A stretch of 64,000 bases of DNA, from assembly GCF_045037415.1 (NCBI RefSeq), contig NZ_CP173438.1; one strand, 5' to 3'. The notes beneath the pieces were generated by a model. It was not told the origin of the DNA, made no database searches, and saw only the letters and a list, made by a program, of their open reading frames with translations. This document shows, piece by piece, positions 62,713-62,763 of the stretch. The position numbers were made by a program, and so were the translations under genes. Positions within the stretch are counted from its first letter, which is position 1. Every line of letters starts with the position of its first letter. Origin of the DNA: Escherichia coli (GTDB taxonomy: Bacteria > Pseudomonadota > Gammaproteobacteria > Enterobacterales > Enterobacteriaceae).

Positions 62713-62763
62713 ATTATAACCACCGCTGGACCCCGTTGCAATTAAGATAATGAGATTTATAAT
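62713..62763. promoter_or_regulatory. Back-to-back sigma70 promoters sharing a palindromic -35 hexamer
   Basis: TTGCAA (62736-62741) is self-complementary; plus strand TTGCAA-N16-TATAAT (-10 62758-62763) for the toxin mRNA; minus strand TTGCAA-N17-TATAAT (-10 62713-62718) for the sRNA. Confidence 0.5.

Follow-up and report, generated by a model that had tools for sequence, protein, structure and literature searches.

Divergent promoters of the zor-orz type I toxin-antitoxin module of Escherichia coli use one palindromic -35 hexamer

The zor-orz module belongs to the type I toxin-antitoxin systems, and the outcome of a module of this type hinges on the ratio of toxin mRNA to antitoxin small RNA (sRNA). 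It has been described in strain EDL933, where zorO-orzO and zorP-orzP lie in tandem between yehI/yehK and yehL (PMC2887945, PMC3919570, PMC5397157, PMC11264685). EDL933 zorO is toxic when overproduced and is rescued by OrzO (PMC3919570), and ZorO produced from its native promoter has been detected in the literature. Fozo 2010 (PMC2887945) reports that the 5' ends of both mRNAs and both sRNAs of EDL933 were mapped by primer extension. A 2025 review (PMC11951105) states that the regulation of zor-orz remains to be deciphered. Divergent transcription from closely spaced start sites has been studied by Warman et al. (bioRxiv 10.1101/2020.01.31.928960; PMC12825309), who define bidirectional promoters as having start sites 7-25 bp apart, most often 18 bp, and a shared -10 element. 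Here, we describe the zor-orz locus in a 64,000-nt stretch of an Escherichia coli genome (GCF_045037415.1, contig NZ_CP173438.1), hereafter called the window. The interval 62713-62763 of the window is the core promoter region of a zor-orz module, which is present in a single copy adjoining yehL, and six base pairs within it serve as the -35 element of both promoters.

The module of the window lies at the same locus and in the same position relative to yehI/yehK and yehL as that of EDL933. The 29-aa peptide, the Orz sRNA, the TTGCAA and TATAAT hexamers, the pairing site, the ribosome-binding site (RBS) and the ~174-nt 5' untranslated region (UTR) all match. The two differ in that EDL933 has two tandem copies and the window strain has one. 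Furthermore, the window strain combines an OrzP-type sRNA and UTR with a ZorO (Thr3) peptide, and its UTR is 2 nt shorter than that of an EDL933-like zorO. Every testable hallmark of zor-orz, namely the peptide, the sRNA, their pairing and the chromosomal position, was found. The first-pass annotation of this DNA had called the flanking genes a toxin and an antitoxin, and this was borne out by the Orz sRNA (Rfam RF02083) on the minus strand and the 29-aa Zor peptide on the plus strand.

Direct reading and a script place the palindrome TTGCAA at 62736-62741 as the -35 hexamer of both promoters; the consensus scan, the alignment and the literature agree, and the element is assigned to no single strand. 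To its left, a 17-nt spacer at 62719-62735 on the minus strand leads to the orz (antitoxin) -10 element at 62713-62718, which is TATAAT on the minus strand (ATTATA on the plus strand) in the sequence and in the consensus scan. This spacer is G+C-rich and, in the alignment, hypervariable among paralogues. To its right, a 16-nt A+T-rich spacer at 62742-62757 on the plus strand, which is also the DNA just upstream of the orz -35, leads to the zor (toxin) -10 element TATAAT at 62758-62763 on the plus strand, read from the sequence and found in the consensus scan. The whole arrangement is thus ATTATA-N17-TTGCAA-N16-TATAAT at 62713-62763. A TATAAT at 16 nt on the plus side and at 17 nt on the minus side of TTGCAA had been claimed before, and every coordinate was confirmed by reading and by script. 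In the consensus scan both promoters have 10 of 12 matches, with spacers of 16 (plus) and 17 nt (minus). The 24 nt on the zor-spacer side of the -35 are 79% A+T, and those on the other side are 46%. Even the looser pattern ATTATA-N15-19-TTGCAA-N15-19-TATAAT has a single instance in the 64-kb window and none in 100 dinucleotide-preserving shuffles; the window contains 19 TTGCAA, 8 TATAAT and 5 ATTATA hexamers in total. It is also the only site in the window where two promoter-like sites (at least 9 of 12 matches) have one -35 in exact register.

Published start-site numbering was placed on this sequence by alignment. Region V1, which is variable in Orz, covers +9 to +11 (PMC3919570), and the differences between the O and P types fall on +9 to +11 only if orz +1 is G62706, 7 nt past the minus-strand -10. 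For the toxin, the published zorO has a 174-nt UTR and its RBS at +164 to +169 (PMC5397157). This numbering puts +1 on the G of TATAATCCTGCCCG, 8 nt past TATAAT, in an EDL933-like zorO copy. The homologous zor +1 in the window is G62771, and the 2 nt by which the window UTR is shorter lie further down. The orz and zor start sites are thus 65 bp apart. Because the published numbering lands 7 and 8 nt past the -10 boxes, both hexamer pairs are promoters in use. Start sites lying elsewhere, which the first-pass annotation had named as the result that would speak against it, were not what this numbering gave. Both promoters have the features of a sigma70 promoter, that is, -35 and -10 hexamers, a spacer of 16-18 bp and a 5' end 5-9 nt past the -10, the 5' ends being taken from the published numbering by alignment.

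Conservation was examined in eight copies of O, P and Q type: the window copy, two copies of strain 124, two of Ec387, those of DDG220 and MS1170, and the orz-only remnant of MG1655. In the 51-bp core of these copies, all 18 hexamer columns are invariant, versus 18 of the 33 spacer columns (hypergeometric p = 3e-4). The invariant spacer columns are 6 of 17 in the orz spacer and 12 of 16 in the zor spacer. The core contains no indels, and the 17/16 spacing is kept in all eight copies. No larger palindrome or operator was visible around TTGCAA in this alignment, the flanks being asymmetric and variable. Table 3 of PMC11264685 gives "-35 (TTGCAA)" for both Zor and Orz, with conservation in 99.4% of the full loci (2,439) and 99.7% of the orz-only loci (656). 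In the same table, the -10 TATAAT is conserved in 100% for zor, even in orz-only loci, and in 99.8% for orz. Sharing of the hexamer would explain why the -35 figures of zor and orz are identical. In Fig. 1A of Wen 2014 (PMC3919570), the predicted promoter elements of both genes, -35 and -10, are likewise boxed. The claim of toxin and antitoxin promoters with one common -35 hexamer thus agrees with Wen 2014, with Table 3 of PMC11264685 and with the mapped start sites. TTGCAA as the -35 of both genes is therefore already in print, at least implicitly, and the promoters and start sites are published. In the searched and accessible parts of the zor-orz papers, there is no statement that the hexamer is shared and no discussion of promoter interference. 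MG1655, an orz-only strain that has lost the toxin gene, keeps the full double promoter with identical TTGCAA and both TATAAT hexamers at ~2,204,345-2,204,395. Only ~35 nt of toxin UTR remain after its toxin promoter, which now points antisense into yehK. OrzP RNA has been detected in MG1655 in the literature.

As a separate observation, the orz spacer (62719-62735) is far more variable than the locus average, which is ~70% invariant; it is nevertheless still G+C-rich and exactly 17 nt long.

These results establish a pair of conserved, active sigma70-type promoters that stand back to back and have their -35 in the same six base pairs. It is known that region 4 of sigma70 binds the -35 duplex and that the footprint of the holoenzyme reaches ~-55. 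Simultaneous occupancy of the two promoters would therefore be excluded, because both need region 4 on the same 6 bp and the holoenzyme covers DNA to ~-55. We propose, with a probability of roughly 60%, that the two promoters occlude each other, that this interference is small at the basal level, and that post-transcriptional control is dominant. Leftward, the 17-nt spacer and TATAAT start the 83-nt Orz at G62706; rightward, the 16-nt spacer and TATAAT start the toxin mRNA at about G62771. Polymerase on one promoter would cover the -35, the spacer and part of the -10 of the other, and the two promoters would share the site in time. The reduction of one promoter should scale with the occupancy of the other and is expected to be small at basal activity. 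It would become appreciable only at heavy occupancy, for example on slow escape from a consensus -10 or on activation. If binding is exclusive, promoter B would fall by (1+K_B)/(1+K_A+K_B), K being the product of on-rate and residence time; for a two-fold effect, promoter A would have to hold polymerase about half of the time. With the optimal 17-nt spacer and 79% A+T upstream of its -35, versus 46% for the toxin promoter, the antitoxin promoter probably has the advantage.

The main brake on the toxin still acts after transcription: in the published scheme, Orz pairs with the 5' UTR and RNase III cleaves the duplex. The full-length zor UTR, as published, in addition hinders its own translation until it is processed. 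The shared hexamer itself may couple the promoters mutationally, in that any change of it would weaken both and so protect the toxin-to-antitoxin ratio. If the promoters truly interfere, the ratio would be partly fixed at initiation, and a factor or a mutation acting on those six base pairs would hit both genes at once. Warman 2026 (PMC12825309), whose study of five E. coli promoters with a shared -10 is the only systematic test of such steric competition known to us, found that steric exclusion is real and that weakening one direction left the other unchanged. Competition appeared there only after "up" mutations or strong activation of one direction. This closest analogy speaks against a meaningful effect at the basal level. 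The competition model is physically reasonable, and competition is probably weak at basal activity. Our best estimate is that it would be conditional and modest. Overall, the locus is a published one, the mechanism is one that we infer, and the proposal is a useful hypothesis rather than a discovery.

Several points weigh against this proposal. An alternative zor -35 element exists, GTTGCA with a 17-nt spacer, which is offset by 1 bp and has 3 of 6 matches, and it still overlaps the orz -35. The absence of indels in the 51 bp is weak evidence and does not in itself show selection for the 17/16 asymmetry. The start sites come from mapping in EDL933 and were transferred to this strain by alignment. 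No measurement of polymerase occupancy or interference at zor-orz was found in the literature accessible to us. Finally, the 10/12 matches of both promoters beat those of typical bidirectional promoters, and occupancy could suffice for real competition.

The last point leads to the alternative that survives best, namely a strong form of the built-in competition proposed in the first-pass annotation. Firing of one promoter would then substantially lower the other, the ratio would be set at initiation, and toxin and antitoxin transcription would be anticorrelated in single cells. Competition is possible because both zor and orz match the consensus better than the bidirectional promoters of Warman et al. 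do, and the residence of polymerase could be long on two promoters with 10/12 matches and perfect -10 boxes. On this account, the 17-nt spacer and the A+T content upstream (79% vs 46%) predict a bias to the antitoxin. Orz is a transcript of ~85 nt that is abundant in exponential phase (PMC2887945). The architecture is kept in every paralogue; however, each promoter's own function accounts for the conserved hexamers, with no need for competition. Where a -10 is shared, competition does arise from "up" mutations or activators, whereas at the five natural bidirectional promoters the knock-down of one direction brought no rise in the other (PMC12825309). In addition, shoB-ohsC works with promoters ~140 bp apart, which shows that a module of this class can do without sharing, and control of the toxin is already explained post-transcriptionally. 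We consider strong competition possible and rather unlikely.

A second alternative is positive coupling. In the twin-domain model, divergent transcription builds negative supercoils between promoters. Through negative supercoiling of the 65 bp between the start sites, each promoter would then help the other to open. The divergent back-to-back geometry and the general literature on supercoiling-sensitive divergent promoters speak for this idea. However, little torsional anchoring is expected of transcripts this short, an untranslated sRNA of 83 nt and a poorly translated toxin mRNA of ~300 nt; moreover, two polymerases cannot start simultaneously. This makes positive coupling improbable.

Regulation by Fur is slightly less probable again. 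A Fur box-like sequence, GATAATGAGATTTATAATC, at 62746-62764 covers the zor spacer and -10 and matches the 19-bp Fur consensus at 15 of 19 positions. When iron is replete, Fur bound there would silence the toxin promoter, and the shared -35 would be free for the antitoxin promoter. No site in the 64-kb window scores higher than 15/19 (one other site ties), and the known Fur-regulated cirA promoter box at 20143 of the same window reaches 14/19. With TATAAT fixed and 70% A+T elsewhere, a score of at least 15/19 has a probability of ~1.5e-4. Nevertheless, chromatin immunoprecipitation-exonuclease (ChIP-exo) of Fur in nine E. coli strains assigned no peak to yehK or yehL (PMC10164565 supplement), and the "yehI/yehK" peaks of BL21(DE3) and W sit at the metG-DUF4132 junction, several kb away. 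Expression of yehI, yehL and yehM shows no significant change in the MG1655 differential-expression table (PMC10164565). In the alignment, the box decays to ~12/19 in zorO-type copies. A Fur-repressed promoter is therefore not supported: the box is present, with no in vivo occupancy peak in the nine strains and no conservation in zorO-type copies. The weakest alternative, that the arrangement is a coincidence in A+T-rich intergenic DNA and that one or neither hexamer pair is a real promoter, draws on the general caution that consensus matches do not prove function, but the 0/100 shuffles, the invariant hexamers amid variable spacers, the detection of both RNAs and published start sites at the expected distance leave it almost no probability, and chance symmetry is effectively refuted by the mapped 5' ends.

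Promoters arranged back to back on TTGCAA were also seen elsewhere, in passing. The exact pattern ATTATA-N16-18-TTGCAA-N16-18-TATAAT was scanned in 100,044 species genomes and in IMG/VR, and at least 120 matches were found in each. The matches listed are mostly from metagenome-assembled genomes of Clostridia and from phage contigs; those from species genomes include no Escherichia, and the scan has no bearing on zor-orz in other Escherichia species. Among the matches listed, with related sequences clustered, 17/17 spacers account for 49% of genome clusters and 35% of viral clusters, versus 11% expected, and TGn extended -10 motifs occur in ~30% per side. Furthermore, 40% of the judgeable genome sites among these matches lie between divergent open reading frames (ORFs), versus 4% of random positions. 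Two control palindromes were scanned in IMG/VR. TTCGAA gave 27 matches, with 15% 17/17 and 5% TGn, and ATGCAT gave 82 matches, with 6% 17/17 and 6% TGn. A recurrent functional architecture is suggested because the preferences for 17/17 and TGn are strong and are absent from both control palindromes.

One viral family stands out. It makes up 21 of the 103 distinct viral matches listed and consists of an Arc-like repressor of ~55 aa divergent from HNH or GIY-YIG homing-endonuclease genes. The repressor is a ribbon-helix-helix protein matching phrog_3180 (E = 1e-15), and its shared-TTGCAA promoter is nearly always 17/17. Examples are found at 3450-3501, 1805-1856, 13030-13081 and 5386-5437 of the viral contigs L133, L136, L147 and L164, respectively. 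Taken together, the scan suggests that double promoters with a shared -35 are recurrent and functional, mainly in Clostridia and phages. A further idea is that palindromic TTGCAA back-to-back promoters, with start sites ~64-66 bp apart, form a distinct and widespread class of bidirectional promoters, separate from those with a shared -10. We advance it only tentatively, and it is more doubtful than not. If the class is real, initiation at zor-orz would be mutually exclusive on each chromosome copy, with anticorrelated bursts and a mutation-proof toxin-to-antitoxin ratio. Its recurrence would extend work on bidirectional promoters, which has so far focused on shared -10 elements. A limited literature search found no description of a promoter class with a shared or overlapping -35.

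The ATGCAT control also had a preference of its own. Its 17/18 spacer combinations occurred in 24 of 47 clusters, with ~10 expected, and one 11-member family among them looks coding.

The Orz antitoxin sRNA lies at 62624-62706 on the minus strand and is OrzP-type by nucleotide identity. RF02083 (OrzO-P) matches 62699-62624 over the full model with 98.6 bits (E = 1.8e-16; gathering score 60), and the alignment agrees. As expected of a divergent Orz sRNA of ~80-85 nt with a terminator, it measures 83 nt from G62706 to the U-run. Its predicted fold has two hairpins and a terminator. The intrinsic terminator hairpin, AACCTGC...GCAGGTT at 62629-62649 followed by a U-run on the minus strand, was found by the terminator scan (which lists it on the plus strand) and from the T-run, and it is invariant in 8/8 copies. 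The 5' end of Orz (seed, 62686-62706) is complementary to a target site at 62852-62872 on the plus strand in the zor 5' UTR, with one internal mismatch (alignment columns 233-253 vs 67-87). For this pairing, Wen 2014 asks for an unbroken stretch of at least 15 nt or, where there is one internal mismatch, for at least 17 nt. The Orz 5' end and the zor 5' UTR of the window pair in this way, with 13 + 6 matched and 1 mismatch over 20 nt (62687-62706 vs 62853-62872). The yehL-proximal copy of strain 124 has this internal mismatch as well. A duplex energy of -42.4 kcal/mol is predicted, counting additional extended pairing. In a separate search result, the 3' half of Orz (62619-62689, minus strand) gave a weak, sub-threshold match to the Salmonella sRNA family STnc370, with 29 bits versus a gathering score of 54. 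This match runs mostly via a similar terminator hairpin, and it could be distant kinship or coincidence.

The 5' UTR of the zor mRNA spans 62771-62942 on the plus strand and is ~172 nt long in this strain, its +1 being placed at G62771 by homology. The toxin RBS, AAGGAG, read from the sequence at 62932-62937 (plus), is listed as the Zor RBS in Table 3 of PMC11264685. It is followed by the toxin ORF at 62943-63032 (plus), taken from the ORF list and the comparison of copies, which encodes 29 aa and a stop, MDTLTQKLTVLIAVLELLVALLRLIDLLK, a ZorO variant (Thr3). The product is thus the small hydrophobic 29-aa peptide expected of Zor. MDTLTQKLTVLIAVLELLVALLRLIDLLK is identical to the peptide of five other copies and is one residue (T3S) from that of a ZorP-type copy; ZorP is known to differ from ZorO by T3S (PMC11264685). 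Past the toxin ORF, at 63054-63077 on the plus strand, the sequence and its fold contain a hairpin, AAGGGGGAA-N6-TTCCCCCTT, which does not appear in the terminator scan list. It is probably the zor terminator, with a weak T-run.

An ORF for a yehL-like AAA ATPase ends at ~62512 on the minus strand. On the other side of the module, yehK is frameshifted in this strain (~63217-63530), with tblastn matches in two frames, and the C-terminus of yehI begins at 63591. The module thus lies between yehI/yehK and yehL, and Fozo 2010 (PMC2887945) places zor-orz at the same chromosomal position. Of 5,426 complete E. coli genomes, 5,232 contain matches to the 541 bp around the locus, with 1-4 places in each. 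In strain 124, which is O157-like, the yehL-proximal copy is 97.4% and the distal copy 88% identical to the window copy. The window copy is a mosaic that joins a ZorO (Thr3) peptide to an sRNA, promoter and UTR of OrzP/zorP type by nucleotides. At 63087-63213, in the interval from the toxin gene to yehK, there is an imperfect inverted-repeat element whose 25-nt arms are 80% complementary and 77 nt apart. We take it to resemble an enterobacterial intergenic repeat. Everything from the toxin UTR through this element is missing in MG1655.

Other divergent promoters show what is particular to zor-orz. The type I modules shoB-ohsC and tisB-istR-1 resemble it in having a long toxin 5' UTR and a divergent antitoxin sRNA that pairs via its 5' end. 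Unlike zor-orz, shoB-ohsC of MG1655 has a published shoB promoter (GTGACC/TAAAAT) that lies ~140 bp from the ohsC start and shares no -35. With shoB-ohsC lacking one, a shared -35 cannot be common to all divergent type I modules. The consensus scan of MG1655 shoB-ohsC did find an overlapping pair, TTGTAA/TTTACA (near-palindromic TTGTAAA), formed by the ohsC promoter and a leftward TAGCAT promoter. This proximal leftward TAGCAT site is probably unused, the published shoB promoter being more distal.

The Pant and Pmnt promoters of phage P22 immI are likewise overlapping divergent promoters in a small regulatory module. Vershon et al. (1987) reportedly found that polymerase at the strong Pant excludes Pmnt and that repression of Pant activates Pmnt. 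In the P22 record X01916, the Pmnt -10 (307-312) abuts or overlaps the Pant -35 (302-307), and the Pmnt -35 (330-335) abuts the Pant -10 (325-330). It is not an exact precedent, as the -10 and -35 elements are crossed, no -35 is shared and the start sites are much closer than in zor-orz.

The bidirectional promoters of Warman et al. differ from zor-orz, which has a shared -35, separate -10 boxes and start sites 65 bp apart, and which therefore falls outside their definition. Warman et al. explicitly leave separate divergent promoters outside their class. What zor-orz and these promoters have in common is one palindromic or pseudo-symmetrical core element at which one polymerase excludes the other, and in both, competition is proposed as a regulatory device.

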